Positions 6,655 to 58,139 of a DNA stretch of 61,530 nucleotides are shown here, in pieces. The position numbers and the translations under genes are program-made. The number at the start of each line of letters is the position of its first letter. The stretch's first letter is position 1. Below the pieces are notes generated by a model. It saw only the letters and a program-made list of their open reading frames with translations, was not told the DNA's origin and made no database searches. Source of the DNA: a virus; UHGV virus genome UHGV-2167453, one strand, 5' to 3'.

Positions 6655-6671
6655 CTTTCTCCTTTCTACTC

Positions 6672-9057: not shown

Positions 9058-9258
9058 GTGTTTGCCCTCCATTTCTAAAATATGTTTTAATTATAGCGGA
9101 AACGGAGAAAAAAGTACTTGTTAAATTTTTTATAATTATGCATTAATTTTTTTGTTCGCAATCTTGGAAAACAGGCATAAAAAATTATGTCTTTATTTTT
9201 TAAAATAGAATACACAATTTTTTGGTTGCGAAATAGCAAAAGGGAGGTAAAATTTTTT

Positions 9259-32782: not shown

Positions 32783-33205
32783 TTACAGATAATAAGAGCC
32801 GAAATACTTCTCAAACTCTTGTAATGCTCTTCCATGAATTGACATTGCATTTCGGAAAGTGCATCCCATCTCCACGCTGATTACATTCCAGTCTTTGCAT
32901 AAGACGTATCTTTCGTACAAGATTCTGTACTGATTTGTATTTTGGATCATCTCTATCTGTTGAACAATTTCTTTTTTCTTTTGTAGTGAGCGTTCAACAG
33001 AATCTGCAAGCTCTGCTTCTGCATCTGCAATTTTAGAGACAAGACTTCCCATTTTGTCCGGTTCTCCGCTGCTCTGAACATTAACCTCTTTTGGAGACAC
33101 AGAAATAGAACAAGCCATATCTCTCAACTGATTAATTTCTTCCATTTTGTTCTTGATTCTGAAATTTAACTTTGAAATCTGTCCCAAATATGTTTTTGTA
33201 TCCAT
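32783..33205 (-). CDS. Hypothetical protein between terminase and portal
   Basis: 140-aa ORF. Confidence 0.3.
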   Translation of the reverse strand: MDTKTYLGQISKLNFRIKNKMEEINQLRDMACSISVSPKEVNVQSSGEPDKMGSLVSKIADAEAELADSVERSLQKKKEIVQQIEMIQNTNQYRILYERYVLCKDWNVISVEMGCTFRNAMSIHGRALQEFEKYFGSYYL

Positions 33206-34950
33206 TATCTATAACCTCCTCTAAACGGATTGTGTACCGCTTCGACTCTTGGTGGTTCCCATGTTCCTTCAATGAAATATGCAAGCGACGCAAGACAATC
33301 AGGAGCGTCTTCATGCTTATTTTTACCCTTAATGGTAAAAGAGTACAGATTCCTCATAAAGTTCCTATATTCTTGATTTCTGAACCCAGTATCGCGAAAA
33401 TAAAACTCACGTATAGAACCAGCTTTGTCCCAAATTCTCTGACTTTTTCTCATTGATGTAGGTGCATACTGAGAAACAAGAGTTACCTTATGTCCTTTTT
33501 CTCTCAGTATTTCGTCCACTTCATCTTTGTAACCCTCTCCACCTTGGTTTGATTCAAAATACACACTTCCTATGTTGTGGTCAATAATCATATTCACAAC
33601 TTTTGGCTTTGTGATTTTCTTTTCTGAATTATCAAAAATGACATCATCAATGTATATGGACCCGTCTTCGTACATGTAAGCCACAGCAAATGCCAAGTAG
33701 TCTTCACCTCCGAGAGCCACATCACATGCAGCACAAATTCTATATGGTTCTTGCGCTGGGAGCACTCCATTGTAGAATCTCATGTGTTCTTGATTAAATA
33801 CAGCTCCGTCTCTTTCAATAGGCTCCTGCTGGCACTGTGCATACCATCCGGCCATATCATCGTTTTCTTCAAATTTTGCACGTTTGATCCTATAGAATTT
33901 TGTTGAAAATCCAACTCCATAGTCATAATCAAAGTTACTTTCATCTGTAACTGGATCAAGTGCTGGAATCTTCAAAATATCATACCTGATATCTTTTGCC
34001 TCTGGATTGTTCTCTAAGAAATCCAATCTGTCCATGTAGATATCTTTCAGACTCCAAATTGTACCGTTGTAGATTATTTTGCATTTCTCTTTCTTACGGG
34101 TCATTACGTTGTTGTCAAAGATAGTCTGCTTTCTTTTGAGAACATCTGGGTTTAAAACATCCTGAATACCCTCGATAATGTCATCAACAATTAGCCATCC
34201 ATACGCATCGTATTCGCCGTTAAGTCCGGATGTAAGTCCTTTTCCAGAAAGAGATTTATATTTTTTCTTTCTTCCTAAATCAACCTTATTGTTTTTTAAG
34301 TCAGTATCTTTGATAATTCCTTTTGGGAACACCTCTTTAAAGCAATAAGTCGGGTCAGTCCATATTTCCATAACTCCATCAAGGAACGCGCTTCCAAGGC
34401 CCTCTTTGTATGTTACGTACAAATTGCTCGCTTCCATATCTCTAGCGCATTTCCATGAAGTCGCAAGCGTAAGTTCTTGGCTTTTACCAACACGGGCAGG
34501 CATATGAACAAACAGTTCATCCAATAAATCGTCTTCAAGCATCTGAATCTTGTCAGTTACCAATTTCAATGTTTTTCTTCTCGGCTCGTAGAATCTGTCT
34601 CTTCGTTTTCTGTTTTTTTCCACATACAGCATATAGCTGTCAAGAATTTCCGGTGCTTCTATTTTCAAAATCTTATAATACTGATTAATCAAGTCAAACT
34701 CTGTCTTATTCTGCTGAGCATAATCTTCAAGCCACGCAAAATCCCCACCGTTTGTCTGTTTTTTTATGATTTGATTAACAATCTGCTTTGCTCTATCAGA
34801 AACTTGCAATCCGTACTTTATGTCTTTCTCTTGCTCAAATGCAGTCTGAACCGCAAGGATGTACGCATCAAGCACCTGTTCGTCAATCCCCTTACGCTCT
34901 ATGTAGTTTTCATACCCTTTTACGGTTTTAATCAAATAATCGCTCGCCAT
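33205..34950 (-). CDS. terL: Terminase large subunit
   Basis: 581 aa; P-loop-like HMPARVGKSQELT; position upstream of portal. Confidence 0.65.
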   Translation of the reverse strand: MASDYLIKTVKGYENYIERKGIDEQVLDAYILAVQTAFEQEKDIKYGLQVSDRAKQIVNQIIKKQTNGGDFAWLEDYAQQNKTEFDLINQYYKILKIEAPEILDSYMLYVEKNRKRRDRFYEPRRKTLKLVTDKIQMLEDDLLDELFVHMPARVGKSQELTLATSWKCARDMEASNLYVTYKEGLGSAFLDGVMEIWTDPTYCFKEVFPKGIIKDTDLKNNKVDLGRKKKYKSLSGKGLTSGLNGEYDAYGWLIVDDIIEGIQDVLNPDVLKRKQTIFDNNVMTRKKEKCKIIYNGTIWSLKDIYMDRLDFLENNPEAKDIRYDILKIPALDPVTDESNFDYDYGVGFSTKFYRIKRAKFEENDDMAGWYAQCQQEPIERDGAVFNQEHMRFYNGVLPAQEPYRICAACDVALGGEDYLAFAVAYMYEDGSIYIDDVIFDNSEKKITKPKVVNMIIDHNIGSVYFESNQGGEGYKDEVDEILREKGHKVTLVSQYAPTSMRKSQRIWDKAGSIREFYFRDTGFRNQEYRNFMRNLYSFTIKGKNKHEDAPDCLASLAYFIEGTWEPPRVEAVHNPFRGGYR

Positions 34951-35041
34951 AACACAAAAAGTGCCCCCTAACTCTTAAAATAAAAAAGTTAAGGAGCACT
35001 CCCCTGTTCCCTGTCCGCATCCGGGCATGAGCTGTTAATAT

Positions 35042-35706: not shown

Positions 35707-35777
35707 CAAGCGTAACTGGAATCGAACCAGTACACCAGGAGTCAAAGTCCTGTGCTCTACCATTAAGCTATACGCCC
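35707..35777 (-). tRNA. tRNA-Gln (anticodon TTG)
   Basis: Cloverleaf by eye: acceptor gggcgta/tacgctt (2 G-U), D-arm gctt-aatggta-gagc, anticodon stem cagga/tcctg loop ctTTGac, T-arm actgg-ttcgatt-ccagt. Confidence 0.7.
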
Positions 35778-35997
35778 TTAGCTGCAAGAAATTTACCTCG
35801 AAAGCCGTAAGGAATTCTTGCACTGCTACGGTTCTTTATAATATTGGAGTTTATTATATGATCGATAAACCACGTCTTTTATTAACAAAACGTTAGTTTC
35901 CGAGCTTCAGCGAACTCCGCAGCTAAAACACTGATTGAATTTTAATTCAAACATGATTAGGGTTTCCCCTTATTCATCATGAAATCATGTTTGAAAA

Positions 35998-36076
35998 TAG
36001 CCATATAAGGATTCGAACCTCAATCTTTCACTTGGGTAGGGGTAGAATGAACGCTTTACCATTAAGCTATACGGCT
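35998..36076 (-). tRNA. Non-canonical tRNA-like gene: intact acceptor, D- and T-arms but anticodon region forms ttcat/gtgaa stem with 16-nt loop (no standard 7-nt anticodon loop)
   Basis: Acceptor agccgta/tatggct, D-arm identical to tRNA-Gln, T-arm tgagg-ttcgaat-cctta; exhaustive 5-7-5 and 5-8-5 searches of the 29-nt middle segment fail. Confidence 0.4.
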
Positions 36077-36137
36077 TCCAGCTACACTGTAGCAAGGAAA
36101 GTAAGTTATGAAAAAGTTTTTTCTCCGAAACTCGGAG

Positions 36138-36209
36138 AGAGCTATCGCCCGGAATCGAACCGGACCCTGTTGATTCGTAATCAACTGCTCTACCATTTGA
36201 GCTATGATA
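36138..36209 (-). tRNA. tRNA-Arg (anticodon ACG)
   Basis: Anticodon stem gttga/tcaac loop ttACGaa; T-arm tccgg-ttcgatt-ccggg; acceptor gctatca/cgatagc (one A-C mismatch). Confidence 0.7.
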
Positions 36210-36344
36210 GCATTTCACGGTTTTTGAAATCTTTTAATCACTTTAAACTTATGGGAATCAAAACTAATCTAAAGGGAAATGGCATATTTACTGCACATAG
36301 GGCGCGTACATGAGGGGTGTTTCTGAGAACCGTGAAACTCAGAA

Positions 36345-36427
36345 CGCCACAAGGAGGATTCGAACCTCCAAGTCGTTTCCGACCGAATGGTTAGCAACCA
36401 TCTCCAATACCTTTATGGGATTGTGGC
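36345..36427 (-). tRNA. tRNA-Ser (anticodon GCT), class II with long variable arm
   Basis: Acceptor gccacaa/ttgtggc perfect; anticodon stem gatgg/ccatt loop ttGCTaa; variable arm cggtcggaaacgac; T-arm ggagg-ttcgaat-cctcc. Confidence 0.7.
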
Positions 36428-39054: not shown

Positions 39055-39741
39055 TCAATCGTTTTCCTCGATCTGTGGCGGTAAATCCTGTCCGAGCTGT
39101 GGCAATTGATCCGCGGTCAGTGGTCTTGCCTCCACTTTCTCACGGCTAACCCCTGGAAGGTTCCACATATGGTGTCTGTTCAGTGATGGTAGTACCTTCA
39201 TTGGATTGATGCGCTTATCTTGTAACATTGACTCTAATGATTGTTCGTTGTCATCCATGATTTTCTTGCGCAAATCGAAATATTTTTTACTTAGTCTATT
39301 ACTATTACCACCACTATTACTAGGATTATATTTAGTGTTATATCTACTGTCTTTATCCCAGTTATATAGTGTTTGTTTATCTATCCCAGACATATCAGAG
39401 AAGCCTTTAATGTTTACAACTTGGCAATGTCTATTGCAGATTCTCTTGTAAATCTCATAGGCATTCATGACTTTCTCATCGTCATAGGTTCCGCCAATGC
39501 TGCCATTGATCCAGAGCAAATTCCCGTTCTTCTCGAACAGTGTCACTCTGATCTCCTCGATAATGTCATTCCAAATCTGTGGTGGAATGTCTGACTCGTC
39601 AAGATCATCTCTCATGCAGTAATCAGTGATCACGTCATCAACTAAGGCTCTGAGGTTGACTGGATCAACTTCAACACTTTCAACACTGTTCACCGTTTCA
39701 ACTTCTACTCTCTCTGTTTTCTGTGTTCTTCTCTTAGCCAT
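39055..39741 (-). CDS. Hypothetical protein (228 aa) immediately downstream of sRNA copy A
   Basis: SD gcggaggtg; no motif recognised. Confidence 0.4.
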   Translation of the reverse strand: MAKRRTQKTERVEVETVNSVESVEVDPVNLRALVDDVITDYCMRDDLDESDIPPQIWNDIIEEIRVTLFEKNGNLLWINGSIGGTYDDEKVMNAYEIYKRICNRHCQVVNIKGFSDMSGIDKQTLYNWDKDSRYNTKYNPSNSGGNSNRLSKKYFDLRKKIMDDNEQSLESMLQDKRINPMKVLPSLNRHHMWNLPGVSREKVEARPLTADQLPQLGQDLPPQIEEND

Positions 39742-39777
39742 TGTTTTTCACCTCCGCATTGTTAATAATCTATAAAC

Positions 39778-39905
39778 AAAAAAGCCTAGACACACCGAGA
39801 TATTAAACAGCTCATTGTCTGTTATTTTCTCGATATGCCTAGGCTGACGATTCCTAGCTCTTTTCGATCCAGCTCCCATTCGGCTTTCACGGATTTCTTG
39901 TCGCT
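39778..39905 (-). ncRNA. Candidate small RNA, copy A (~128 nt): sigma70-like promoter, conserved 5' region, long intrinsic terminator
   Basis: -35 ttgcaa / 17 bp with TG / -10 tataat (39912-39940, minus); 17-bp terminator stem agcctaggcatatcgag...ctcggtgtgtctaggct + U6. Confidence 0.55.
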
Positions 39906-39911
39906 GATGCC

Positions 39912-39940
39912 ATTATAACACAACGAAAATCTGTTTGCAA
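39912..39940 (-). promoter_or_regulatory. Promoter of sRNA copy A (ttgcaa-N17-tataat, extended -10 TG)
   Basis: Direct reading of minus strand ttgcaaacagattttcgttgtgttataat. Confidence 0.55.
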
Positions 39941-39984
39941 TAGTGTCGAGTAAATTAATTTTAAATTTTTATCAAGGCGTGTGC

Positions 39985-40040
39985 GTCCGTGTATGTGCGT
40001 GCTCGGCTGTGCACTGGCGTGTCCGTGTTTTGATAATCAG
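39985..40040. repeat. GC-rich GT/GC-alternating tract (gcgtgtgcgtccgtgtatgtgcgtgctcggctgtgcactggcgtgtccgtg) in AT-rich 760-bp intergenic region
   Basis: Local composition outlier with gtgcgt/cgtgt repeats. Confidence 0.4.
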
Positions 40041-40465
40041 ATCAGACAATGCACTGTTCTGTTGGCTGTGGTTGTCTCTTCCGGCCGTTGTTCATTTCTT
40101 GTCTGATCGATTTATTTTTACATCGATTTTGGGGAGGTACACAGTCGGTGTTTTCTCAAAACCCGACCTTTTTAAAACTATAGACTGAACGTAGTGAAGG
40201 ATATAGTTTTGAAAAGTAATATATATAATATTATAAATTATTTAGTAAGTCGATTATTATGGCTGTATCCATTCTGTATCCAATCTGTATACAAATAGCA
40301 TAATAATTTGCACAGCGTAACATTTGTGAAATCCCTGTTTGCCCTTGTGTTTACTGGCTTTGTTGGCATTTGTTAAATATTTATCGTAACAATTTGTTAA
40401 CAGTTTTGTAACCCTACTTGCCCTGTTAGTTTGAACTAACAACTATTTTTAAAAAAATAGAGCAG

Positions 40466-40500
40466 GAATGCCCATTTCTTGCTCTATTGGCTAAAATAAT
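40466..40500 (-). terminator. Rho-independent terminator after 40503..40694
   Basis: atagagca...tgctctat 8-bp stem with A7 on plus (U-run on minus). Confidence 0.6.
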
Positions 40501-40790
40501 ATTTAATAAATCACATCTTTCAGAATCAGTTCTACAGAGTTTACTTTGATGATTTCGGGAAGCTTATTTCTGTTGTTCGCAACCTTGAATTTCTTCAATG
40601 CATTGTCGTGAGTGTGTGAAAATATATGCTTAGTTATTGTCGTTCCGTCTTCGAGATCAGCTGATATTTTATATACGTTTTTCAGTCTTTCCATTGTCTT
40701 TCACCTGTTCATTTGATATAATAATTGTTTGAGAGCGGTGGCAAGTTCCGCCCTCTCTTGTGTGTCTGAGTCGCTTTGTGCGGCTCTTTC

Positions 40791-40928
40791 TATTTGTCTT
40801 CTGTCGGTTTGTACTCTTCTGCTCCGCTCTCGATGTAAAGAAGGAAGTCGTTTATCTTCTTCTCTTCCCATCCAGCCGATCGCAGTCCCTCAATTAGTCT
40901 TGCTATCTCTGTCATTGTCATATCGTTC
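40791..40928 (-). CDS. Small hypothetical protein (46 aa, MNDMTMTEIARLIEGLRSAGWEEKK...)
   Basis: SD aaaggag; driven by promoter containing operator copies 1-2. Confidence 0.4.
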
Positions 40929-40939
40929 ATAGTTCTCCT

Positions 40940-41400
40940 TTCTCCGTCTTGCCACGGCAACTTGTAAGTATCTCTTACAAGTATTACTATACATTATTAA
41001 ACTATTCTTGTCAATGCATTATTAAACTATTCTTTCATTCTTTCAAGTTCTTTCTGAACGCAATCAAGAACAAACCCGGATATTTTCATTCCTTTCAGTT
41101 CGGCAGCTTTCTTGATCTGGTCTTTCGTTCCTCTAGGTGCCATCACTGTTATTCTATCATAGTTGTCTTTCTGATATTGTGCGATATAGCTTAATTCTTT
41201 TTCTTTATCTTTGAATGCCATTATTAAAACTCCTTTCTTATCTATAATGCTATTATACATTATTGAACTATGCTTGTCAATTTGGTTGAAAAATTTTCAT
41301 TATTATATAAGAAGAAACAAAAATATTTTAAAATTATTAAACTATACCGTTGACATAATTATTAAACTATGCTATATTATAACCATAGCAAAGAACAAAA
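40940..41400. promoter_or_regulatory. Three promoters (two minus, one plus) each built around a 13-mer operator attattaaactat / atagtttaataat (5 copies), flanking the RHH gene
   Basis: Copies at ~40992, ~41019, ~41258 (rc), ~41335, ~41363; ttgaca-N17-tata(g/a)t arrangement with operator inside spacer. Confidence 0.55.
41027..41218 (-). CDS. Ribbon-helix-helix DNA-binding protein (Arc/CopG/ParG-like), probable repressor of flanking promoters
   Basis: Start MAFKDKEKELSY...; DRITVMAPRGTKDQIKKAAELKGMKISGFVLDCV RHH pattern. Confidence 0.55.
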   Translation of the reverse strand, partial: AFKDKEKELSYIAQYQKDNYDRITVMAPRGTKDQIKKAAELKGMKISGFVLDCVQKELERMKE

Positions 41401-41495
41401 CAAAAAAGCCGACCGGAGCAGCTACCAACTCACACCGATCGGCACCAATCAAAAGAAAGGTAGCTCTATTATAACAGGAGCAAAGGAAAAAAGCA

Positions 41496-41903
41496 ATGTT
41501 AAGAACAAACAGCAGAAAAGCAATGGAGAACATCAGAAAAGAGATCGTGAACAGCTACGAGGCTGCAAACGAATATTACACATTCGAAGGCAGAGAAGCA
41601 AAGACAGATTTTAACGAGATCTGCGCAGACATCCTGGAGGCGTTCAGAATTGAAAAGCTTGAAAATGACTGTTATTACATCGCAGGCAGAGCAAGTAAAA
41701 ATGAAATGTTCATGGACTGGATGCAGGGACTTCCAACAGCGTTCCCGGTTGCTGATGATATTTTTCTCAGATCAGCGATCGACTTTCTTGGAAATATCCT
41801 TGAAGAGACAGAGGAAGAAAAGGCAAGATACACAGAGGACAAAGCCGAGAAATTAGCTTGTAACCTTCTTTACAGAGAACTTGAGAAAGGCGCACGCAAA
41901 TAG
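41496..41903 (+). CDS. Hypothetical protein, first gene of plus-strand operon
   Basis: 135 aa, SD aggagcaaagg. Confidence 0.4.
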   Translation: MLRTNSRKAMENIRKEIVNSYEAANEYYTFEGREAKTDFNEICADILEAFRIEKLENDCYYIAGRASKNEMFMDWMQGLPTAFPVADDIFLRSAIDFLGNILEETEEEKARYTEDKAEKLACNLLYRELEKGARK

Positions 41904-41959
41904 ATAGAGCAACCGGGGAGCAATCCCCGGAAGTCTTGAGCAGATCAGGAGGGCAAAAC

Positions 41960-42163
41960 ATGATAAAGATAGATATGTGGTATGAATATAAGCCGGAAGA
42001 AGTGACCGGAATTAATTGGAGTTTTTACGGTTACGACGTTGTATATCGTGGCAACCTTTACAAGAACGGGAAAACGATCGGAGACTTTACAGCGGACACA
42101 ATGCAGGAAGTACAAGAAGCCTTCCCGCAGTTATCGGAATCGATTAACAAGGCATTGAACTAG
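41960..42163 (+). CDS. Hypothetical small protein
   Basis: Start MIKIDMWYEY with SD aggaggg. Confidence 0.4.
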   Translation: MIKIDMWYEYKPEEVTGINWSFYGYDVVYRGNLYKNGKTIGDFTADTMQEVQEAFPQLSESINKALN

Positions 42164-42366
42164 AAAGGACTTGAAACCATGAGAAAAGCACTTGACTTTA
42201 TTATTTTAATTTTGATGGTTGCGGCGATCAGCTCAGCTGCCACCCGTGTATACATGATAAGAACCGCAGCGCCTTCCGTGCCTTGTTCTATCGCATGGAA
42301 TGACGAAGTGCACGACTACAGATAACAGCCGCCCGCCACGGAGGAACGAAGGCAGAAAGGGAAGAA

Positions 42367-42663
42367 ATGAGGAAATACGATTTTGATAAAATGGGGAATC
42401 TATGGAAGGATCACGCACAGACGATCATAAGCAAGGGAACATTTTTGGCAGTCTCCGGAAGTTGGGACATGTGGGCATATGATGGCATAGTTTACAGCAT
42501 ACCGCAGGCAGGGAGCGGCGGGGCGTGTTCTGTATGGTGCGGAGTTAAGAACCTGCGCGCCCACCTTTACAGACTTAGACAGATACGCGAAAGCGCCGGA
42601 CTCATTCCGGAAGACTGGCAGAACGTCAACAAGAAATTCTTTGAAGAAATGAAAATAGCATAG
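42367..42663 (+). CDS. Hypothetical protein
   Basis: 98-aa ORF. Confidence 0.35.
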   Translation: MRKYDFDKMGNLWKDHAQTIISKGTFLAVSGSWDMWAYDGIVYSIPQAGSGGACSVWCGVKNLRAHLYRLRQIRESAGLIPEDWQNVNKKFFEEMKIA

Positions 42664-42710
42664 CCGGACGCGTTCCGGCTTTTAGAATACCAGAAGGGGG
42701 ACAGAATCAA

Positions 42711-42893
42711 ATGAAAAATAGAGATATCGCAGAAATGATTTTTACCGCTTTAAGTGACGGATACGACAACGAAGAAGAACGCCAGGAGACAGAAACAGAG
42801 CTTGCCGCAGAACTTGAACAGCTGGAAGAAGGTGCAACGCTCAAAGCTGCATTGATTGCACTCTGTGAACGTGTCGAAGAATTGCAGAGCTAG
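42711..42893 (+). CDS. Hypothetical acidic small protein
   Basis: 60-aa ORF. Confidence 0.3.
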   Translation: MKNRDIAEMIFTALSDGYDNEEERQETETELAAELEQLEEGATLKAALIALCERVEELQS

Positions 42894-42982
42894 GAACTGA
42901 GCCGGAAGATATTGATCTATTGCATAGAGTGGAGAGTTTCACGAATACAAATAACAGGAAAGAGAAAAGGAGGAAAAACACA

Positions 42983-43744
42983 ATGAAAGCACAGAGAAAT
43001 TGGATCACACCAGAGGGAAAGAGTTTTGTCAAGTATGAGAACATGATGGAGCAGCCGCACTTGTTAGTTGCTGGAGCTACCGGATCGGGAAAATCGGTTG
43101 TAATTAATGGAATTATCACAACTGCACTGTTTGATGCACCGTCACAAGTACAGTTCATTCTTATCGACCCGAAGAGAGTGGAACTCGTAGACTATAGATA
43201 TCTTCCTCACACGGCTTTCTACGCATCCGAACCGGCTGAGATGGTCAGAGGATTGCAAATGGCTATGAATACCATTGAAACGAGATATACACAGATGCAG
43301 AGAGCGCACGAGAAGAAATACCATGGGACGCAGTTATACGTAATTATTGACGAATTAGCGGACTTAATGACCACGAACAAAAAACAGGTAATGCCACTGA
43401 TCCAGCGCATCGCACAAATAGGACGTGCCGCCGGAGTCCATCTGATCTGCGCGACTCAGTGTCCACTTGCCAAGGTCATACCGACAGAAATCAAGGTCAA
43501 CTTTGATGCCCGTGTGGGACTGCGTACGAGGTCAGCACAGGACAGCAGAAATATACTAGGCTTTAACGGTTGCGAGGATTTACCGCGCTATGGACAGGCA
43601 TATTATATGAATCCTGATAGTGGAGTAAAAAAAATAGTTGTTCCGATGTATGACAAGGGCGAAACATGGCGTTTGATTAATCACTGGATGCAGCAGCGCC
43701 CACCGAAAAAGAAAGGATTCTTTGAAAGATTGTTTAGAATATAA
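42983..43744 (+). CDS. FtsK/SpoIIIE-family P-loop ATPase (DNA translocase-like)
   Basis: Walker A LLVAGATGSGKSV, Walker B LYVIIDELADL; start MKAQRNWITPEGK with SD aaaggagg. Confidence 0.7.
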   Translation: MKAQRNWITPEGKSFVKYENMMEQPHLLVAGATGSGKSVVINGIITTALFDAPSQVQFILIDPKRVELVDYRYLPHTAFYASEPAEMVRGLQMAMNTIETRYTQMQRAHEKKYHGTQLYVIIDELADLMTTNKKQVMPLIQRIAQIGRAAGVHLICATQCPLAKVIPTEIKVNFDARVGLRTRSAQDSRNILGFNGCEDLPRYGQAYYMNPDSGVKKIVVPMYDKGETWRLINHWMQQRPPKKKGFFERLFRI

Positions 43745-43778
43745 AGAGAACCGGGAGAAATTCCCGGCTCTTTTTGTT
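43745..43778 (+). terminator. Rho-independent terminator ending plus-strand operon
   Basis: gaaccggga-gaaat-tcccggctc then ttttt. Confidence 0.75.
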
Positions 43779-43896
43779 TGCTTATTTTTGTACAACGCTC
43801 TATTTTGCTTTTTAAGGCTATTTTCATCGTTAGGCAAAGAAGCATAGCTTAAACTAATTCAAATCAATTCTAGCCACATTCTGCGAAGCCACAGAA

Positions 43897-44631
43897 TCAA
43901 ACTCCGAATTCCTTGTTGTTCTTTTTCTTCCACTCTTCCCGTTCTGCTTCTTTCTTCTTCTCTTCTTCGGTCATTTCTGAACCGTTTCGCACCCTCTTGA
44001 CATAGTTGACGATGTCGTTTTTTGTCGCTTCCTGAATCTCTTTTAGTCTATTCTTTCGCTGTTCTTCTTCCGCGGAAATCTTAGCAGCGTCTTCGGCTCT
44101 CTTCTTTGCAAGTTCTTCGTTTAATTCCTCAAGTGATTGAATTCCCTTTTCTTGTGGTTTGTTTTCCTGTTCCGGTTCTTCCAGTAGTTCCGGGTGTTCA
44201 ACGTATTCTTTCGCTTTTGCAAAAATATCCACGCTGTAAGTATTTATCAAGTCTTTCTGTATAACAATGTCAGTGATTCGCTCCCCGTATTTGCGTGCTA
44301 AGAATTTAGCCGATTTCTCTTTCTTCTTTTCCTCTTCTGACTCATACAGAGGATCAACAAAACCCTCTTCCCATGGCATCAATTCAACTGCTGCCATCTG
44401 GTCGACCTCTTTCGTCCCTTTTTCGGTCGAAACGCTCTCTGTAGACTCTAAAATCGGGGCTGTTGGCGTTTCAAGTGATTTAAGCATAGTTTCTACTGCT
44501 TCAACGATAAAAGCGTTTATAGTGTAGTCTATGCTCTGTATTCGCTCTTTCGTTCCTTTCGGTAATCTAGCTTGCACAATATCAAACTTTGAGTTATAAC
44601 GGTTTTGCGCGTCTTTCTGGTATTTCTTCAA
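43897..44631 (-). CDS. Hypothetical acidic coiled-coil protein transcribed out of TATATAT array
   Basis: 244 aa, E/K-rich C-terminus. Confidence 0.35.
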   Translation of the reverse strand: MKKYQKDAQNRYNSKFDIVQARLPKGTKERIQSIDYTINAFIVEAVETMLKSLETPTAPILESTESVSTEKGTKEVDQMAAVELMPWEEGFVDPLYESEEEKKKEKSAKFLARKYGERITDIVIQKDLINTYSVDIFAKAKEYVEHPELLEEPEQENKPQEKGIQSLEELNEELAKKRAEDAAKISAEEEQRKNRLKEIQEATKNDIVNYVKRVRNGSEMTEEEKKKEAEREEWKKKNNKEFGV

Positions 44632-44649
44632 GAAAAAGCACTCCTTTCA

Positions 44650-44800
44650 AACGATATCTTTGCTATATATAATACTATATATAAAATCTATATATCAAGC
44701 TATATATAAAAGGTATATATAAACACTATATATCTATCATATATATCTTTGCTATATATCATTACTATATATCTTTTATATATATCATGCATATATAGTT
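44650..44800. repeat. Array of ~11 direct repeats of (c)TATATAT(a/c) spaced 12-13 bp
   Basis: gctatatataat actatatataaa ctatatatcaag ctatatataaaa ggtatatataaa ... catgcatatatag. Confidence 0.7.
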
Positions 44801-44927
44801 TGCATCTAATTGTATTTATATAATGGTATTTAGATTTTTTCTCGAAAATTTCAAATTTCTTCCCTAAAACCGCGAACTTTACTCCGTTCTGAAAAAATGT
44901 TATGATAAAAAGAAAAGGAGTATTGGC

Positions 44928-45098
44928 ATGTACGAGGACATTTTAGAGTACCTGGACAAACGTCTCAAGGAAAATACTCGCGATATCGGCTCCGCAATCA
45001 CTTCCAGGGATGTTGATGATATCCACAGATATGAGGGCAGAGAGCAGATGATTCTTGAAATCAAGCGGTTTATAAGGAAAAAGCAAGGGGAGAAATGA
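44928..45098 (+). CDS. Small hypothetical protein (56 aa, MYEDILEYLDKRLKENTRDIG...)
   Basis: SD aaaggag; followed by hairpin ggggaga-aatgat-ctcccc. Confidence 0.35.
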   Translation: MYEDILEYLDKRLKENTRDIGSAITSRDVDDIHRYEGREQMILEIKRFIRKKQGEK

Positions 45099-45344
45099 TC
45101 TCCCCTCTTTGATTATTTGCAGAAATTGTTCAGCAATTCTTCTTTTAATTCCATCTTCCCGGCTCTAAAACCGAGCTTGAAAGCATAGATCAGTGCTTTT
45201 GTCTTCCCCATCTCCACTTTGTCAGCAATCGTAACCAATGGAAGCAGGTCTTCCGCAAAGTAATCTGTAACCACACTGTCGCTGATCGGGCGAATTTTCT
45301 CTTCAATATTATTCAGCGTGCTTCTCATATCGCTGACTTTTACT

Positions 45345-46064
45345 TTAAACTTCTTTACTACCATTCTTTTTCTCCTCTCTATGTTCTACCTTTAATTCGT
45401 AAAGGCCGTCAATCACGGTTTTTGCACGTTCAGCCATGTCAGGGAAGAAGTCAAATAAATCTAATTTGCTTTCAAGTCTCTTTCCTGTCCCCATAATATA
45501 TCTGATTTCTGCTTCCTCAAGGTCGAATTTTTCTTCAATGTAAGGAAATATAAGCTCAAACAAAAATTTTTCTTCGACACCGTAGCTGCTGCAAATAGCT
45601 GCTATTTTATATCTGTTTTTTCTGTAGAACGTAACTGGTTTAGGTGCCGGGATGCTAGATACCTTCGGTCTCTGCGGAATTTCTGCCACTTCTCTCGCTT
45701 TGAAATAGGTATTCACAAGTCTTCTCTGAACGCTCCACGACAATTCGTCTTTGAACGTCTTGACAGCCATCAGATATCCGCTCTCTGTCAACAAAACAAC
45801 TTCAAGATTAGGGTTGCCAACACTCTTATCTGAATTCTGTACGTGATACGTACTGAACTCTGACATCGTAACCTTAAAGTAATCCTCGCCCTTAATAAAA
45901 TGTTCCTTATGACTGTTGAAGTTTCTCTTAGCTGTGCCAGACGGTCTCTGGTGAACTTCATCAATGTCCTTGAAAGTAACTACTCTCTGTCCTTTGTATT
46001 CTCTGATCGGTAATGCTATTTCACTTACTGCTAAATTTTCTTTTGCCATCTTCTTAACCTCCAT
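45345..46064 (-). CDS. ORF6N-domain (Bro-N-like) antirepressor-family protein
   Basis: ...GQRVVTFKDIDEVHQRPSGTAKRNFNSHKEHFIKGEDYFKV... ORF6N signature. Confidence 0.55.
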   Translation of the reverse strand: MEVKKMAKENLAVSEIALPIREYKGQRVVTFKDIDEVHQRPSGTAKRNFNSHKEHFIKGEDYFKVTMSEFSTYHVQNSDKSVGNPNLEVVLLTESGYLMAVKTFKDELSWSVQRRLVNTYFKAREVAEIPQRPKVSSIPAPKPVTFYRKNRYKIAAICSSYGVEEKFLFELIFPYIEEKFDLEEAEIRYIMGTGKRLESKLDLFDFFPDMAERAKTVIDGLYELKVEHREEKKNGSKEV

Positions 46065-46463
46065 ATCAAATTACACTGTTGCTCTTGCCTTTGATTTTGC
46101 TTTCGCTTTTTGTAGTTCCCGATAGCCAAATGCATAGTCAAGAAGTACCCTGATTGCATCAACATCTTCCAGTTCATCTACCAGCTTCTTAATGTCATCT
46201 CTATAAATCTCTCTGTAAAATTCATCTCTGTCTTCGTAAAAATCAACGTCTTTCATTTATTTGTCCCCCTTAGACATCATTATAAAATCATACTTTGCTG
46301 CGTACATTTTACAAAATCCTGCAAGTTCAGCAAGACTGGTATAGCAGACAAGATTGTCCGCAATGTAATGGAGAATTGCTCTGTTGTCCTCTGGCTTCAT
46401 AATATTTACTTCTAAGTTAATTTCTTTCATAATAAAAACTCCTTTCAATTTAAAAAAATGTTC

Positions 46464-46492
46464 TTGAAAGAAGTCCCCGTCTGCATTATAAT
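46464..46492 (+). promoter_or_regulatory. Plus-strand promoter ttgaaa-N17-tataat
   Basis: ttgaaagaagtccccgtctgcattataat. Confidence 0.45.
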
Positions 46493-46498
46493 ATTTGC

Positions 46499-46567
46499 AG
46501 AAGGAAACTTCTAACTTGGTGGAGATTCACTATTACTTTGGTCGGTAGGTGTGAATCTCTATTTTTT
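46499..46567 (+). ncRNA. Candidate ~70-nt plus-strand small RNA, convergent with and overlapping 3' end of RHH gene 46559..46735
   Basis: Promoter above; internal hairpin agaag-gaaa-cttct; terminator gagattcac...gtgaatctc + tatttttt. Confidence 0.35.
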
Positions 46568-46735
46568 GATTTCAGACTTTAATTTGTGAATCCCTCTTCT
46601 TATCCCCTCTGTCTTCGGAATTTCTTCTTGCTGACAATATTCATCAAGAATTTCCTTTGTTTCATTGTCTAGCCTTACGTGAATAGGGTTTGATTTTGGA
46701 TTTTCACTTTTTGGTCTTCCTGTTCTTGGACTCAT
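46559..46735 (-). CDS. Ribbon-helix-helix protein (CopG/antitoxin-like), 58 aa
   Basis: MSPRTGRPKSENPKSNPIHVRLDNETKEILDEYCQQEEIPKTEGIRRGIHKL; SD ggggtga. Confidence 0.55.
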   Translation of the reverse strand: MSPRTGRPKSENPKSNPIHVRLDNETKEILDEYCQQEEIPKTEGIRRGIHKLKSEIKK

Positions 46736-46860
46736 ATTTTCACCCCACTTTCTGTAGCCCTATAATTATGATAATATATGTAGCCCAATAAGTCAATACC
46801 TAAATTCAAAAAAATAGAGAGGAATAAAAATCCCTCTCCAAAATAATCCATATTCAATTG

Positions 46861-47430
46861 TTACTGTACGATTTCTTCAAGGTCAAGGCTGTATCCCATA
46901 ACCTCTCCTACATCTGTACACTTTCCTCTTACTGTAATAGTGTCACCAGTTGAAAGAGTCTTCACAGCGTTGATGATATCTTCATCTCCATTTGTGTAGC
47001 ACTGAACTCCAGTAAGCGCAAAGTCATCATCTTCAGGAAGAATACTAATGTATGATGAGTCACTATCTATATTTGAAAGTTTTCCTGTAATTTCAAGATA
47101 CTTGTCTTTGTACTCATCAGAAGCTGCTGCTGCATTCTTGTCAAGAGCATCCACCATGTCACTGATAGAAACCTGTGTATACTCAATTGTTTCTTCCTGT
47201 TTAGCATCTGTGGCACCTTTACTGTTTGAATCACTCTTTGCTGTGGAATCGTCTGATCCACCACCGCCCATAGCAGCTCCGATAATTCCAATCACTACAA
47301 CTGCAATGATAATCCATTTCAGCTTTCCACCCTGTTTCTTTCTACAATTCGGACAAACCTTTGCTTTCTTTGGTATTTCTGACTGACAATGTTTGCAAAT
47401 TTTTGTTCCTGTGTTTTTTGATTTTCCCAT
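46861..47430 (-). CDS. Membrane-anchored protein: N-terminal zinc ribbon (CKHC...CPNC), TM helix, Gly/Ser linker, extracytoplasmic domain
   Basis: 189 aa; topology by inspection. Confidence 0.45.
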   Translation of the reverse strand: MGKSKNTGTKICKHCQSEIPKKAKVCPNCRKKQGGKLKWIIIAVVVIGIIGAAMGGGGSDDSTAKSDSNSKGATDAKQEETIEYTQVSISDMVDALDKNAAAASDEYKDKYLEITGKLSNIDSDSSYISILPEDDDFALTGVQCYTNGDEDIINAVKTLSTGDTITVRGKCTDVGEVMGYSLDLEEIVQ

Positions 47431-47643
47431 AATCCTTTTTTCCTTTCTTTCGATATACTGTAATTGTATTACATTCTTTTGAAAAACTCAATAGATTGCA
47501 TGAAAAAAGCACGGATCAACCGTGCGATTTCCGTTACAAAAATATTATTCTTATAGTGTGGATTATGCAGCCATATCAAACAAACCTAAGATAAACTTTC
47601 TTCCAATGCTATCGATGACCTAGGTAGTAGCTATCCCATCTTT

Positions 47644-48237
47644 TTAAGATACCCAGTTGTTTACTCCATCTTTCAATTCAGAAAAAGTATAGTATTCAAT
47701 ACCGTCTATTTTACTTCCGTTATCAAAAGGAGTCTCTGTTATTCCAATGAGAATAGGATTGTCAAAATTAGATCCGTATGAAAGTAATTGCTGATTTGGA
47801 TTCTTTCTGTCAATCTTTAATTCTATAATAATCGGTCTTCCATTCTTTTCTGCGTAAATATCTATTTTACCAATTCCTTTCACATATTTTTCTTCTTCAA
47901 TATGATCACATCCAGGGAATATTTTGTCAAAGTTATCTAATATTTCTTTTTTCATCTTAGCTTCGGTACATTCTCTAGCTTTGATACTTCTATAAGGAAG
48001 ATTTAAATCGGCATAAAGTGTTTCAGCCAAAAGAATTATTGTTCGTAAACCATAAATTTCGGAATACTCGTAGATTACCTGAGCAAGTATTCTTAGGTCT
48101 GCATTGTTTAATGCTGATTTCAATTCACTGCAAGCAATAAAAAATTCGGTAAAATTTTTGCATGAATCAAGAACTTTCAAAAGATCTTCTTTCTCCACTG
48201 TTTCATCATCAAACTTATAATTTTTTAATTCATTCAT
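47644..48237 (-). CDS. Hypothetical protein with possible PD-(D/E)XK-like motif (GKIDIYAE...IIIELK)
   Basis: Start MNELKNYKF with SD aaaggagaag. Confidence 0.35.
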   Translation of the reverse strand: MNELKNYKFDDETVEKEDLLKVLDSCKNFTEFFIACSELKSALNNADLRILAQVIYEYSEIYGLRTIILLAETLYADLNLPYRSIKARECTEAKMKKEILDNFDKIFPGCDHIEEEKYVKGIGKIDIYAEKNGRPIIIELKIDRKNPNQQLLSYGSNFDNPILIGITETPFDNGSKIDGIEYYTFSELKDGVNNWVS

Positions 48238-48486
48238 TTTTCTTCTCCTTTTCATAAAAACGTTGGTTTTTCCAAAAGGATGTGCTATTATAATTTAGTA
48301 AGCATCCTTTTAGATTGGTTGTTTTAAGAGTTGTTTCTTTGGTAGGTGGCAACTCTTATTTTTTTGTCAGAAATAGCAGAGCCTAAATCAATAGACTCTG
48401 CCACGTTCAATTCGTAACCAGCCGCATTACTGGTCGGTATTCCGTTTTTAGTATCCAGCACCATCAATGGAGTATATTAGAGAAAT

Positions 48487-48616
48487 AAAAAAGCCTGAGT
48501 ACGCTGAGAGTAAAGACAGTATTTTGTACTATCCTTTTTCTCAGTATACTCAGGCTGACGATTCCTGACCCTTGTTGATCTGAATCCCATTCGTTCTTCA
48601 CATATTTCTCGTCGCT
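48487..48616 (-). ncRNA. Candidate small RNA, copy B (~130 nt), paralog of copy A
   Basis: -35 ttgttt / 17 bp / TGnTATAAT (48623-48651, minus); 18-bp terminator stem agcctgagtatactgaga...tctcagcgtactcaggct + U5; ~70% identity to copy A with compensatory stem changes. Confidence 0.55.
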
Positions 48617-48640
48617 GATATTATTATAACACAAATGGAA

Positions 48641-48970
48641 TTAATAAACAACACGCGCAAGCAAAATATTTTCAATCAAATCAGTCAATGAAATAATTTC
48701 TCTCGCATGGTCAGAAATGAAATTGCAAAGGCGTTCCTCTGTTTCTATAGGAAGAGAAATTCCGTAGGTCATACAAACAGCGTGAGTCAGCTCATGGGAA
48801 AGAACGCGGTCAAACATGGTATCTGAGAGACGATTAGACAGATAGATTGTATTGGTCATTCTGTCAGTAACTCCTAGCGTGTAAACACCGTCTGACCGTC
48901 TCAGTAGCTCACTGGATGGATTTTCGTATTGGACATGCCATAATTCATCATTGATATAGAAATTCATCAA
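48641..48970 (-). CDS. Small HExxH metallopeptidase-motif protein (ImmA/IrrE-like candidate)
   Basis: ...VLSHELTHAV... HExxH; 109 aa. Confidence 0.4.
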   Translation of the reverse strand: MMNFYINDELWHVQYENPSSELLRRSDGVYTLGVTDRMTNTIYLSNRLSDTMFDRVLSHELTHAVCMTYGISLPIETEERLCNFISDHAREIISLTDLIENILLARVVY

Positions 48971-52948: not shown

Positions 52949-53230
52949 TTTTGCGTACACACTTTTGCTGTGTACCGTACACACTTTTTACACACTTTTG
53001 CTGTGTAAATTCGTGTAAATACGTGTAATTTTATGAAATTCAGTGTGTATGCCAAATTGCTTGAAACCCTTATAAACTCAGTGTTAGAACGGTGTTCCAT
53101 ACAGATCATAAGGTGTCACCTGATATACGTAATAAGTTTACAAAGTTTAGTACAAAATGCTCCAAAAATCCTTTATTTTAAGGCTTTTTTATGTTGGCAA
53201 GTGTGTAACTTACACACCATTTACACACTT
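52949..53230. promoter_or_regulatory. Candidate attP region with repeated TACACAC(T)TTT arm-type motifs adjacent to integrase 3' end
   Basis: tacacacttttgctgtgta at 52956-52974 and 52989-53007; tacacacttttt 52979-52990; further tacacac/gtgtaa copies at 53200-53228. Confidence 0.45.
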
Positions 53231-54419
53231 ATGAAATTTTTTGTTTGAAATCCACGATATTATTTGGCGTATTATCTACCAGTTTTTCAATATCATTAAA
53301 AGATTTTTCTTTCGTAACATGAGTATATAAATCAAGAGTCATTTTAACACTTGCATGACCTAAATATGATTGAACAACTTTAGGATCGATTTCGTGTTCA
53401 AAACATCGAGTGGCAAATGTATGCCTAAATGTATGTCCACTAAAATTTTTGAACAAATCATTGTTCGGTCGCAACAAATTTATTTCTCTTATAACTGCAT
53501 GTATAGCATCTGCATATATCACTGAATTCATCGGAGTATTGTACTTTGTAGTGAACAAAAAATCATTCTGTTCTTTTGGTCTCTTGCTTGATACTATCGC
53601 TTTTTGTTGAATCTGTCTTTCAAGATATATTTTACAAACGCTGTTTATTGGGACTTTCCTATAACTCTGCTTTGTTTTTGGTTCTTCTAGGTGAAAAGTC
53701 TTTCTTGTATCTGTAAGGTACTTTTGGTACACTAACGTTTTGTTTACATCGATGAACCCATTTTCAAAATCGATATCTGATTCTGTCAACGCAAAAAGTT
53801 CTCCTGGTCTCATTCCAGTATTTACTGCAACATTAAACATATTATCATAAAATGTATTTTTGCAATATTTAAAGAAAATGTTCTGTTCTTCAAGAGTAAG
53901 AGATTTGGCTTTAGATTCTTTCTTGTCTATAACTTTGGATCCTAAAACTGGGTTTTTTGAAATCAGATTATCTTCAAGTGCTCTGGCCATTAGATCTGAT
54001 AATATGACTTTGATTTTATTTTGCCTTTCATACCCATATCCATTTGTATGAGCCAATGTTATTATTCTTTGAATATCTGATTTAACCAAAGAATTTATGT
54101 TGCGATTTCCTATAAAAGGTGATATATTCTTATTGTATATGTGAGTGTATTCTCTAAGAGTATTAGGGCGTACACTCTTTTCTTTATATATCTTTATCCA
54201 TTGATTAAACCAATTATCCAATTTTACGGTTTCTCTTACACTTACAAATGTTTCATTTTCTGCAATTTTAACAGCAAGATCTTTTCTCAACTCAGATAAC
54301 TTTTTTGAATATATTGTCTTTGAATTGCCAAACCTATCTTTATATCTTCCTTGATAGGTCCCGTTTTTTCTTTGAGTTATCCCAACTCCTAGTTCTTTTC
54401 CTCTTAAATCCTTTCCCAT
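53229..54419 (-). CDS. int: Tyrosine recombinase / phage integrase
   Basis: 396 aa; C-terminal ...SGHTFRHTFAT...LGHASVKMTLDLYTHV catalytic R-H-R-Y signature. Confidence 0.85.
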   Translation of the reverse strand: MGKDLRGKELGVGITQRKNGTYQGRYKDRFGNSKTIYSKKLSELRKDLAVKIAENETFVSVRETVKLDNWFNQWIKIYKEKSVRPNTLREYTHIYNKNISPFIGNRNINSLVKSDIQRIITLAHTNGYGYERQNKIKVILSDLMARALEDNLISKNPVLGSKVIDKKESKAKSLTLEEQNIFFKYCKNTFYDNMFNVAVNTGMRPGELFALTESDIDFENGFIDVNKTLVYQKYLTDTRKTFHLEEPKTKQSYRKVPINSVCKIYLERQIQQKAIVSSKRPKEQNDFLFTTKYNTPMNSVIYADAIHAVIREINLLRPNNDLFKNFSGHTFRHTFATRCFEHEIDPKVVQSYLGHASVKMTLDLYTHVTKEKSFNDIEKLVDNTPNNIVDFKQKIS

Positions 54420-54496: not shown

Positions 54497-54901
54497 TTAG
54501 ACTTCAATTGTTTTTTCAATATACTTCTCAAATTCTTTTCTTTTAACTAATCTCTTACCTTTTCCAACGCAAAAAAGGAACGGGCATCCTGGTTCGTTCA
54601 GCATGGAACTTATCTTATTAACACCAATGTTGCTATACTGCGAAGCTTCTTCCACTGTGAGCATTACCTTTTCCCATACAGGAATACTATTGTCTTTCAA
54701 TTTTACTACCTCCATCACTTTGGACATTATACTTTTTACTCGTCTGTTTACAGTTGATTCTGAAACAGAAAGCTTTTCCGAAATTTCAATTATGCTTTTT
54801 CCTTTTGATAACATAATAAAAATTCTCAATTCTTCATCGGTAAAGTTACATTCTTTTATGTAATAATTTATCTCGCTTTTTACACATTTACATAACTTCA
54901 T
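54497..54901 (-). CDS. Excisionase-like DNA-binding protein with N-terminal sigma-70 region-4/LuxR-type HTH
   Basis: SESTVNRRVKSIMSKV HTH plus C-terminal LTVEEASQYSNIGVNKISSML...GKGKRLVKRKEFEKYIE Xis-type HTH_17; directly upstream of int. Confidence 0.55.
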   Translation of the reverse strand: MKLCKCVKSEINYYIKECNFTDEELRIFIMLSKGKSIIEISEKLSVSESTVNRRVKSIMSKVMEVVKLKDNSIPVWEKVMLTVEEASQYSNIGVNKISSMLNEPGCPFLFCVGKGKRLVKRKEFEKYIEKTIEV

Positions 54902-56429: not shown

Positions 56430-58139
56430 CCACCTCCAACTTCTTCAGATCCTCAATAAGCCACGGTTCGGAGTCTGGCCATTTAATCATTGGAAAATCA
56501 ACATCAGCACAATCATCCAAACAAAAACAATCACAATTATTTCTTGACCAAAAAACATCAAGTTTGTCTGGCTTCGCGCTGTATACGTATAAATAATTTG
56601 TCTTGTCTCTTGCAATATATTCATACTTTTCTATGAGATACTCCAAAAACTCTCTGTCTCTCTTGCTTATCACTGGCTTTTCGATGTACTCTGACTCTGC
56701 CCACTCTCTTCTTGCCTTGTCACAGTCTTCCATCTTCAAAAACAAACAAGCTGCACATGGAGCGTCACAGCAATCCGCAACTTCATTCGTATTTTTATTA
56801 ACCCTAAAATCGTGTCCTTTGCAAGCAATCTCCACAATCTCTGTTGCAAACCTCTCTTTATTCTTCATCCTTATTACTCCTATCCTTAGCGCACTCATCA
56901 CAATCACCATTCGCAGCTCCGAAGCAACCGCAACAAGCATTTGTCTGCTCTTTATTTTTCACCTCTTCCAACAATCCATTCACAACCAGTTCGCACTCAA
57001 TCTCGGTTGCTGTCCGCTTGTCGCTGAATTTACAGTTTGGATTCTTGTGGATTCGTGCATCCTTGATCGGCCATTCAGATTCCGTAAAATGCTTACTGTC
57101 CACAAACATTACTCTGTGTCCGTTCTTCACGCAGAGATAGTAACTCTCTGCGCTTTTCGGAAGTCCTCGGCAAGGCTTGAACCCGAACCGCATAAACTCA
57201 CTTGCCTTTACTACTGGTTTTAGTCTCATTTCTGTTCCCTCTTTCTTCTTGCCATGACCATGTGCTTTCCGCTTTTCTGCAATTCACCATAAATCGAATC
57301 ACATATTGCTGATATCCCAATGTTTCTCGACAGGCTCTCAAAATAATTTGTATCCGTCTTTTCCCATGTCCTTGTTGGTGCGTGGTAAAATCTTCCGTCT
57401 GCTGTCTCTACCATCGTCTGTTCCTCACATGCTGTAGGTGTGTAGAATTTCACACATATACCTCGTACACCTGATTCGTAACATCTGATTTTGTCACCGA
57501 TATCAAACCTTCTCATTTTTCTCTTCCTCTGTGATACTTCACTTTATTGTTTTTGATTGCATCCAATACAGTTCTTTTCAATTTTTCATCTGTAATCGCT
57601 ATTACTTTCCCATGTTCCAATCTTCTTTCTTCAACAAGATATATAACGTTGCTCACCTTGTCCAAATCAAGTATTGCGATATCTTCCGGATGCATAAACA
57701 AAATACGTTTATTTGACAGCTCTATTTTTAGCCTGGCTTCTTCAAGCGCTCTTATAAAGTCTTTACCATTCATCTTTTCTTTCCTTTTCAACTAAACAGT
57801 TATGACCGCCGGATTTACAACGCCGTCACCGTCATATCCATAATCTTTGTTGTGCCATTTTCTTAGACATTCTCCGTATTCCCAACATTGAGAAAGAATA
57901 CTGACAGCTGCTCCGTACATAAATCTTGAGATTCCCTCTTGATCCGCTTCATGGCTCAGCTGCTTTGCATTATCAACAATAACTTTCATTTCGTCTTCTT
58001 CTGATGCTTCTATCTTCTCTTCCATCATTCCTGCCCATCTTTCAGCATATGTAAAACACGCTCTACCGTATGGATTACTGTTTTTTTCATACCAGTCTTT
58101 ATATTCCTGTTCTTTACCTTTTACAATTTTCATCTTCAT

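Follow-up and report, generated by a model that had tools for sequence, protein, structure and literature searches.

Two paralogous cassettes and their conservation as RNA

The window, as we call the whole 61,530-nt stretch of virus genome UHGV-2167453 analysed here, is the ~61.5-kb genome of a temperate siphovirus-like phage from the human gut. Its minus strand carries two paralogous cassettes, copy A (39778-39940) and copy B (48487-48651), each consisting of a promoter, a leader and a terminator. Their parts are given below, P1 and P2 being helices of the 5' domain of the leader, with positions counted from the first nucleotide of AUCAGCGAC, with which the conserved stretch opens in both copies.

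39912-39940, minus strand: promoter A, TTGCAA, 17-nt spacer ending in TGt, extended -10 TATAAT
39847-39908, minus strand: leader A 5' domain, positions 1-62 (AUCAGCGAC at 1-9), with P2 and a possible P1
39865-39891, minus strand: P2 hairpin of A, stem AGCC/G(A)GCU, loop CGAAUGGGA
39778-39845, minus strand: terminator A, 18-bp lower stem with a small apical hairpin (39784-39845) and U6 (39778-39783)
48623-48651, minus strand: promoter B, TTGTTT and TATAAT separated by a 17-nt spacer with TGt; overlaps the stop codon of the ImmA-like gene
48558-48619, minus strand: leader B 5' domain, positions 1-62
48487-48556, minus strand: terminator B, 17 bp with one A.C mismatch and a 10-bp apical extension (48493-48556), U6 (48487-48492)

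The two copies form the longest dispersed direct repeat of the region, with 77% identity over 99 nt according to a repeat finder and 80% identity over the 235 columns of a MAFFT alignment; the longest identical run is 15 nt. A covariance model built from the first 71 nt of 13 distinct variants, and run on the window with filters off, retrieved A at 101.4 bits and B at 99.0 bits, with the next best site at 13.4 bits, so that the pair of minus-strand paralogs reported in a preliminary description of this DNA was recovered as the only two sites. Rfam 15 at gathering thresholds returned tRNAs only over the whole window and no family for A or B, and in E-value mode (E up to 10) gave only spurious microRNA or small nucleolar RNA matches at the two loci, the best being mir-883 at 24.9 bits against a threshold of 85. 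A blastn search of GenBank phages (INPHARED) with the cassettes found no similar sequence. Near-matches at 51-147 and 61419, considered as a third copy, belong to a 27-nt coding tandem repeat. We also rejected the idea that A and B are the template and variable repeats of a diversity-generating retroelement, as they differ by substitutions of all types and not at template adenines, have a promoter and a terminator each, and are 26-36 kb away from the reverse-transcriptase gene at 12307-13461.

Both promoters are strong, as previously proposed, except that the TGt falls inside the 17-nt spacer and is not added to it. The -35 and -10 elements of promoter A are invariant in 25 variants while its spacer varies, and the probable transcription start is at position 3-5. 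The -35 of promoter B (48651-48646) is weak, with 3/6 matches, and ends 3 nt before the TAA of gene 48641-48970, the HExxH gene whose stop codon B had been said to abut. Within the 5' domain we identified a hairpin, P2, that the preliminary description had missed. It pairs positions 24-27 with 34-38 (AGCC/G(A)GCU in A, GAAC/G(A)UUC in B), has the same loop CGAAUGGGA in both copies, and includes a symmetric internal loop, UGAA/RGAU (UGAA/GGAU in A), in which tandem G.A pairs are possible. Positions 18-19 and 43-44 supply its closing pairs; at 18-44, most A copies have C-G, whereas three A variants and every B copy have U-A. The domain as a whole may be closed by P1, a 4-bp helix of positions 5-8 and 59-62. 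Outside P2 the domain is purine-rich and weakly folded (-3.6 to -8.6 kcal/mol) and holds two conserved blocks, AGCGACRAGAAAU and AGGAAUCGUCAGCCU, the latter entering the base of the terminator.

Several lines of evidence indicate that pairing is maintained in both parts of the RNA. Over the 18 positions of the terminator lower stem, 97% of cells are paired; five pairs differ on both sides between A and B (A-U/G-C, G-C/A-U, C-G/U-A, U-G/U-A/C-G and C-G/U-A) and three on one side, in keeping with the compensatory changes claimed earlier, and sliding the 3' partner abolishes nearly all of the covariation signal. In the 5' hairpin, four pairs are changed on both sides and 99% of cells are paired, a covariation signal that disappears in slid registers. 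Where relatives carry substitutions in the 5' domain, these either preserve the pairing (as C6U does, giving U.G) or affect the loop, the bulge or single-stranded stretches. Folding z-scores of the whole RNA against shuffled sequences were -4.95 for A and -6.57 for B. As the independent events are few, we regard the covariation as supportive and not conclusive.

The same data bear on whether the conserved unit is a peptide, a leader peptide or small protein that would act as a product or by coupling translation to termination. An ATG-started frame encoding MG..S.R.RNRQP is indeed open in both copies, with an identical RNRQP segment, as the preliminary description had allowed; in A, where it begins MGAGSKRARNRQPRHIEKI... 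and continues through the hairpin, it specifies 43 amino acids (39748-39879) and not ~18, and in B it begins MGFRSTRVRNRQPEYTEKKDS... However, the AUG is preceded by GUGAAAGCCGA and no Shine-Dalgarno sequence, most A/B differences are non-synonymous, the frames diverge wholly past RNRQP and cross the hairpin, and the shared RNRQP is the translation of the invariant RNA block AGGAAUCGUCAGCCU. Moreover, the ATG is lost in two relatives (ACG in L016, ATA in L026). A translated product is thus scarcely credible. The compensatory pairs in the terminator and the 5' hairpin, together with the loss of the ATG, argue instead for selection on RNA structure, the view taken at the outset. A and B are real RNA-level features under selection, outside every described RNA family.

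The late operon behind A and the cargo slot behind B

Nearly all genes of the window are on the minus strand, and the surroundings of the two cassettes can be summarized as follows.

39055-39741, minus strand: first late gene, 228 amino acids, small-terminase-like; ATG 36 nt after the U-run of A
9933-39741, minus strand: late operon downstream of leader A, ~30 kb, packaging, morphogenesis and lysis
33205-34950, minus strand: large terminase (terL)
30931-32400, minus strand: portal
28498-29586, minus strand: major head protein
20256-24338, minus strand: tape measure
9933-11012, minus strand: endolysin
39941-48486: mosaic cargo slot with a NucS-like nuclease, a Sie-like protein, an ORF6N antirepressor, RHH proteins and iterons, and an FtsK-like ATPase
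48256-48486, minus strand: non-coding stretch after terminator B, conserved in relatives, with further hairpins, followed by variable cargo
48641-48970, minus strand: ImmA/IrrE-like gene, 109 amino acids, HExxH, last gene of a syntenic block, with B attached to its 3' end
53229-54419: integrase
54497-54901: excisionase-like gene
9187-9879 and 8223-8648, plus strand: repressor-type HTH genes
1-7400: antirepressor, recombination and replication genes

Copy A is adjacent to gene 39055-39741, as first described, at a distance from U-run to ATG (position 39741) of 36 nt where 40 had been given. The 228-residue product had no sequence match in Pfam, PHROG, NCBIfam or PDB; its AlphaFold model (pLDDT 67) matched a BFVD "DNA-packaging protein" at E = 4.5e-5, along with several weak "terminase small subunit" entries, and on the strength of this modelled fold we consider the gene small-terminase-like. 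Since this gene adjoins A, and since the genes from terL to the endolysin are on the same strand, A heads the ~30-kb late operon. No near-consensus minus-strand promoter was found in the late region (9933-39741), and promoter A is the sole promoter-like site before the operon; upstream of it lie ~500 nt of non-coding DNA and a terminator closing the previous unit. Thus, of the proposal that the copies are small RNA genes or regulatory RNAs, the RNA-level selection holds, but the status of a free-standing gene probably does not, A being the promoter-proximal leader of the late operon. Terminator-like hairpins also occur inside the operon (35003-34957, 30684-30653, 25796-25783 and 24385-24367).

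The late region and its borders have other features of their own. The 34957-35003 hairpin (minus strand) has 20 bp and a weak U-tail and lies directly before the large-terminase start codon. Genes for tRNA-Gln, tRNA-Arg and tRNA-Ser are located at 35707-36427 (minus strand), within the operon; a fourth tRNA-like Rfam call at 35998-36076 has 14 nt in the anticodon loop where the model has 6, and was not called by ARAGORN. The reverse-transcriptase gene at 12307-13461 (minus strand; PHROG 1423) sits among tail genes and probably marks a diversity-generating retroelement. CA-rich ACACGSAC repeats occupy 39960-40060, just upstream of promoter A, and a "cacgcacg"-like sequence with a hairpin precedes the terS-like gene in two distant relatives, L110 and L122; this may be a cos/pac region.

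On the other side of the slot, B is, judging from synteny, a clade-specific duplicate of the late leader located at the slot's entrance, because the block ending in the ImmA-like gene (52743-48641) is syntenic in three distant relatives (L110, L112 and L121) and is followed there by a plain terminator or gene and no B-like leader. The DNA between this block and the late leader is variable in all compared phages. Most relatives compared retain the ~260 nt of non-coding DNA after terminator B (48225-48486) at ~95% conservation, and the NucS-like PD-(D/E)xK gene that comes after B (47607-48224) is found in the window only, being replaced in all relatives compared. A scan of the module for defence systems gave generic ATPase or nuclease matches only. 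Two further arrangements within the slot involve RHH genes. A CTATATATA iteron array with a 13-nt period (44650-44800) is directly upstream of an RHH-like 244-amino-acid gene (43897-44631), whose N-terminal RHH is conserved in relatives, where such proteins adjoin the late leader upstream. At 40990-41375, five ATAGTTTAATAAT repeats and three near-consensus promoters (11-12/12 matches) surround a 77-amino-acid RHH gene (41027-41260), which looks like an autoregulated divergent switch within the slot.

Three observations concern other parts of the window. The 27-nt coding tandem repeat (GASSATG-Y/N...) spans both window ends (1-200 and 61350-61530, minus strand); as both ends lie inside one repeat, the sequence is a closed circle that was cut arbitrarily. 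An anti-defence gene of the early region (57792-58139, minus strand) encodes 115 amino acids with a match (E = 9.6e-35) to Tad4 of Pfam, an inhibitor of Type I Thoeris. Finally, at 8150-8250 a second immunity switch places the HTH gene 8223-8648 (plus strand) divergent from a TTGACA-17-TATAGT promoter with ATCCTAAAAA / ATCCGAAAAAATAGGAT operators. These immunity-region operators are missing from promoters A and B, so that control of the cassettes is to be expected after initiation.

Recurrence of the design in related phages

To place the cassettes among related phages, we scanned human-gut viromes and metagenomes with exact patterns and obtained ~50 loci, which are near-identical A-type or B-type copies, with both copies present wherever the contig is long enough. 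The 28 human-gut loci of the metagenome scan are all of A or B type, a pattern scan of IMG/VR gave near-identical A or B copies and chance matches only, and the 16 matches in GTDB genomes approximate the chance expectation, none being in gut Firmicutes. The covariation statistics are thin because these pattern scans found no distant homologues.

Within the clade, conservation is concentrated in the cassettes. Among 45 distinct variants, pairwise diversity is 0.014-0.025 across leader and terminator (0.025 in the 5' domain of leader A), compared with 0.10-0.18 in the spacer of promoter A, 0.09 downstream of A and 0.24 downstream of B. In one relative, L111, leader A is 100% identical over 71 nt while the first late protein is only 71% identical. 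The A-B distance in relatives is 7.3-8.9 kb, and no A/B chimeras or one-copy deletion products were found among the 45 variants. The suggestion that the pair are relics of a recombination or insertion event is therefore not supported, as every relative of sufficient length has kept both copies, these vary 3-10 times less than the DNA beside them, and no chimeras were seen. Nor did the comparison bear out the related idea that homologous phages might lack the 8.6 kb between the copies; the slot is present in distant relatives as well, there with a single leader.

Homologues of the 228-amino-acid protein (44-56% identity) led us to more distant phages, in eight further sequence-distinct lineages. 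Six of these (L112; L114-117; L118-120/L153-155; L121; L152; L156) have a promoter, a leader and a terminator before the first late gene: the promoter is near-consensus, of TTGACA or TTGCAT type, the leader measures 85-150 nt, and the terminator is strong, often very long, and ends 25-50 nt before the ATG. Their leaders are unrelated in sequence to those of the window, and a k-mer test on nine leaders, including the window's two, found the terminator U-run as the sole common motif; a shared AGAGC[AU]AGGA..CG.CA in L152, L156 and L114 was not significant. That the same design recurs with unrelated sequence before a homologous gene suggests a cis-acting gate. The other two lineages, L110 and L122, have a motif, TTCGTTCTTTTA..AAATC.ATTGTA, upstream of the terS-like gene (L110 8860-8900, L122 3900-3960), which may be a different, activator-type late promoter.

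A candidate termination gate and its alternatives

We favour, at about even confidence, the interpretation that A and B are cis-acting termination gates and that A would gate late transcription in a manner analogous to lambda PR'-tR'. By default, RNA polymerase would start at the strong sigma-A-type promoter, halt at the terminator and release an RNA of ~128-130 nt. Expression of what lies downstream, the late operon past A and the swappable accessory slot past B, would require read-through. The 5' domain (P2 with its CGAAUGGGA loop, AGCGACRAGAAAU and AGGAAUCGUCAGCCU) would be recognized by an antitermination factor acting in trans, whether from the phage or from its host; such a factor would render polymerase resistant to the terminator or keep the 5' base of the stem open, and read-through would depend on the P2 loop and the AGGAAUCGUC block. 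B would stem from a duplication of the late leader that subjected the cargo slot to the same control, and the ~130-nt RNA left by termination, possibly functional itself, would count as a by-product.

The sequences show the anatomy, the covariation in the RNA, the place of A at the head of the late operon and the reappearance of the design in relatives; the conditional read-through and the trans-acting factor are steps that we infer. With regard to the former, we reasoned that late transcription must pass the terminator because promoter and terminator recur just before the operon with no room for a conventional second promoter, and the internal hairpins of the late operon, which come without strong promoters, fit processive antitermination. 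With regard to the latter, a covarying hairpin, invariant single-stranded blocks, one of which enters the terminator base, and promoters free of the immunity operator point to a factor reading the nascent leader, and the weak 5' fold and the lack of a conserved antiterminator pairing favour such a factor over a ligand-sensing fold. As to its identity, we considered the RHH proteins encoded upstream of the late leader in relatives as candidates. The 210- and 109-amino-acid genes upstream of B, positional analogues of Q, were rejected because they are also present in L110, where no leader terminator exists, and have no informative homology.

The closest parallel is the lambdoid late leader, PR'-qut-tR', with its 6S RNA, StxS and IsrK/AntQ variants. 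In lambda and in Stx phages, PR' is constitutively active, its transcripts ending at tR' as long as Q does not act (PMC7547250, PMC10325885); in Stx phages the terminated RNA, StxS, is itself regulatory (PMC7547250), and the Gifsy-1 IsrK/AntQ system likewise yields a small RNA by-product (PMC4825925). There, as here, a strong promoter that is not repressor-controlled gives a short terminated transcript before the late operon, with a strong intrinsic terminator between the promoter and the first late gene; as we propose for the cassettes, late genes are expressed by read-through and the by-product can serve as a small RNA. Unlike in the lambdoid systems, however, Pfam, PHROGs and NCBIfam picked up no Q-family gene among the ORFs (open reading frames) examined, the initial transcribed region shows no obvious sigma-dependent pause element, and the conserved determinant is in the transcript, as a covarying hairpin, and not in promoter DNA. 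The presumed Gram-positive gut host, the duplication of the cassette and the lack of sequence similarity set the present case further apart.

Two paralogous promoter-proximal RNA elements per genome are also a feature of lambda N/nut (nutL, nutR) and HK022 put (putL, putR). These likewise combine a linear conserved block with a small hairpin bearing a conserved loop, and in both settings the element would modify polymerase entering a long operon. Nut and put sites, however, have no terminator of their own immediately downstream, whereas here there is no recognized N-like arginine-rich protein, no boxA/boxB consensus and no put two-stem fold, both copies are on one strand, and one of them heads a late and not an early operon. 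Very long operons of Gram-positive mobile elements provide a third comparison: those controlled by conAn (pLS20), by a zipper-type attenuator or by LoaP start with a terminator-bearing leader RNA whose intrinsic terminator must be overcome (PMC8191782, PMC13401043, PMC12691694). Here the differences are that conAn2 measures ~280-380 nt and works with the ConAn1 protein encoded upstream, that the zipper attenuator needs complementary flanks extending the central stem, of which none was found at A or B, and that no ConAn1 or NusG-paralog domain was detected among the ORFs scanned. In addition, the conAn system does not cope with long stems, as stems of at least 14 bp made terminators resistant to its processive antitermination in Bacillus subtilis (PMC10325885).

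Several observations weigh against the termination gate. By analogy with conAn, the 17-18-bp stems could be hard stops. The scan of ~70 ORFs with Pfam, PHROGs and NCBIfam revealed no Q, N-like, NusG/LoaP-like, conAn1, RinA/ArpU or sigma protein. Two of the eight distant lineages (L110 and L122) are without a leader terminator, and the covariation derives from few independent events, namely the divergence of A from B and one or two more among the A-type copies. An activator-dependent promoter may, moreover, overlap the terminator, TAGATT following the U-run of A and TAATAT that of B.

If the resistance of stems of at least 14 bp generalizes, the stems would be hard stops and the cassettes stand-alone genes for trans-acting small RNAs, an explanation to be taken seriously, though less probable than the gate. 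The purine-rich and weakly folded 5' region of the ~130-nt product would mediate its action on mRNAs or proteins of the host or the phage, and late transcription would depend on an activator and start from a promoter that overlaps the terminator, with TAGATT and TAATAT as weak -10-like words. The anatomy is complete for such a role (strong promoter, unstructured 5' domain, very stable terminator), at least one system of processive antitermination fails at long stems (PMC10325885), a second copy sharing the 5' blocks would give twice the dose, and prophage leader by-products with small RNA function are documented in StxS (PMC7547250) and IsrK (PMC4825925). However, no translation-initiation region of the phage pairs with the 5' domain better than shuffled sequence, the 25-50 nt between U-run and late ATG leave scant space for a separate promoter and 5' untranslated region, and unrelated leaders at the same position before the same gene would be unexpected of independent small RNA genes. 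The two interpretations are compatible, since the terminated leader could, like StxS, have an additional role in trans. A more specific version of the gate, tentative and on balance unlikely, is that the 5' domain constitutes a new RNA-borne antitermination signal of Gram-positive gut phages that overrides 17-18-bp terminators and was duplicated to wire the cargo slot; it would be a put-like element acting directly on RNA polymerase or a nut-like site for an unrecognized phage protein.

Neither a non-functional repeat nor a sensor accounts well for these data. Neutral direct repeats, be they scars of the insertion or duplication of the 8.6-kb module or substrates for its excision, would explain why direct repeats flank a mosaic module of varying content and length among relatives and why B is confined to this clade. 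This is improbable, as complementarity is kept at nine pairs changed on both sides despite 20% divergence, neither copy has lost its promoter hexamers or U-run, diversity is several-fold lower in the leaders than in the flanks, and recombinant or one-copy products are missing from the 45 variants, with 15 nt as the longest identical run. Similarly, the order of promoter, leader, terminator and gene is the classic layout of a Firmicute riboswitch, in which the 5' domain would be an aptamer toggling between antiterminator and terminator folds in response to ligand or temperature. We consider such a riboswitch or attenuator quite improbable, since no Rfam family is reached at gathering thresholds, the 5' domain folds weakly, the 5' arm of the terminator pairs with sequence upstream no better than with shuffles (53/200 and 132/200) and has different partners in A and B, and the non-homologous leaders of relatives would demand many aptamers for one gene.

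The regulatory kind to which a termination gate belongs is already known; the RNA family itself is undescribed. Little is known of how temperate phages of gut Firmicutes control their late genes, and the known Gram-positive examples use activators such as RinA, ArpU and Alt. If the termination gate is correct, a recurrent terminator with interchangeable leaders would represent lambda-like antitermination logic in gut Firmicute phages, and the cassettes would offer concrete RNA elements for tracing the antitermination factor. Should the 5' domain prove to be a new signal, the differing leaders of relatives would be specificity variants of one late-gene control system. The duplicated copy would show how accessory genes, among them a nuclease and a superinfection-exclusion-like protein, are plugged into the late switch, and the abundant ~130-nt by-product RNA would be a candidate prophage small RNA in human gut bacteria.

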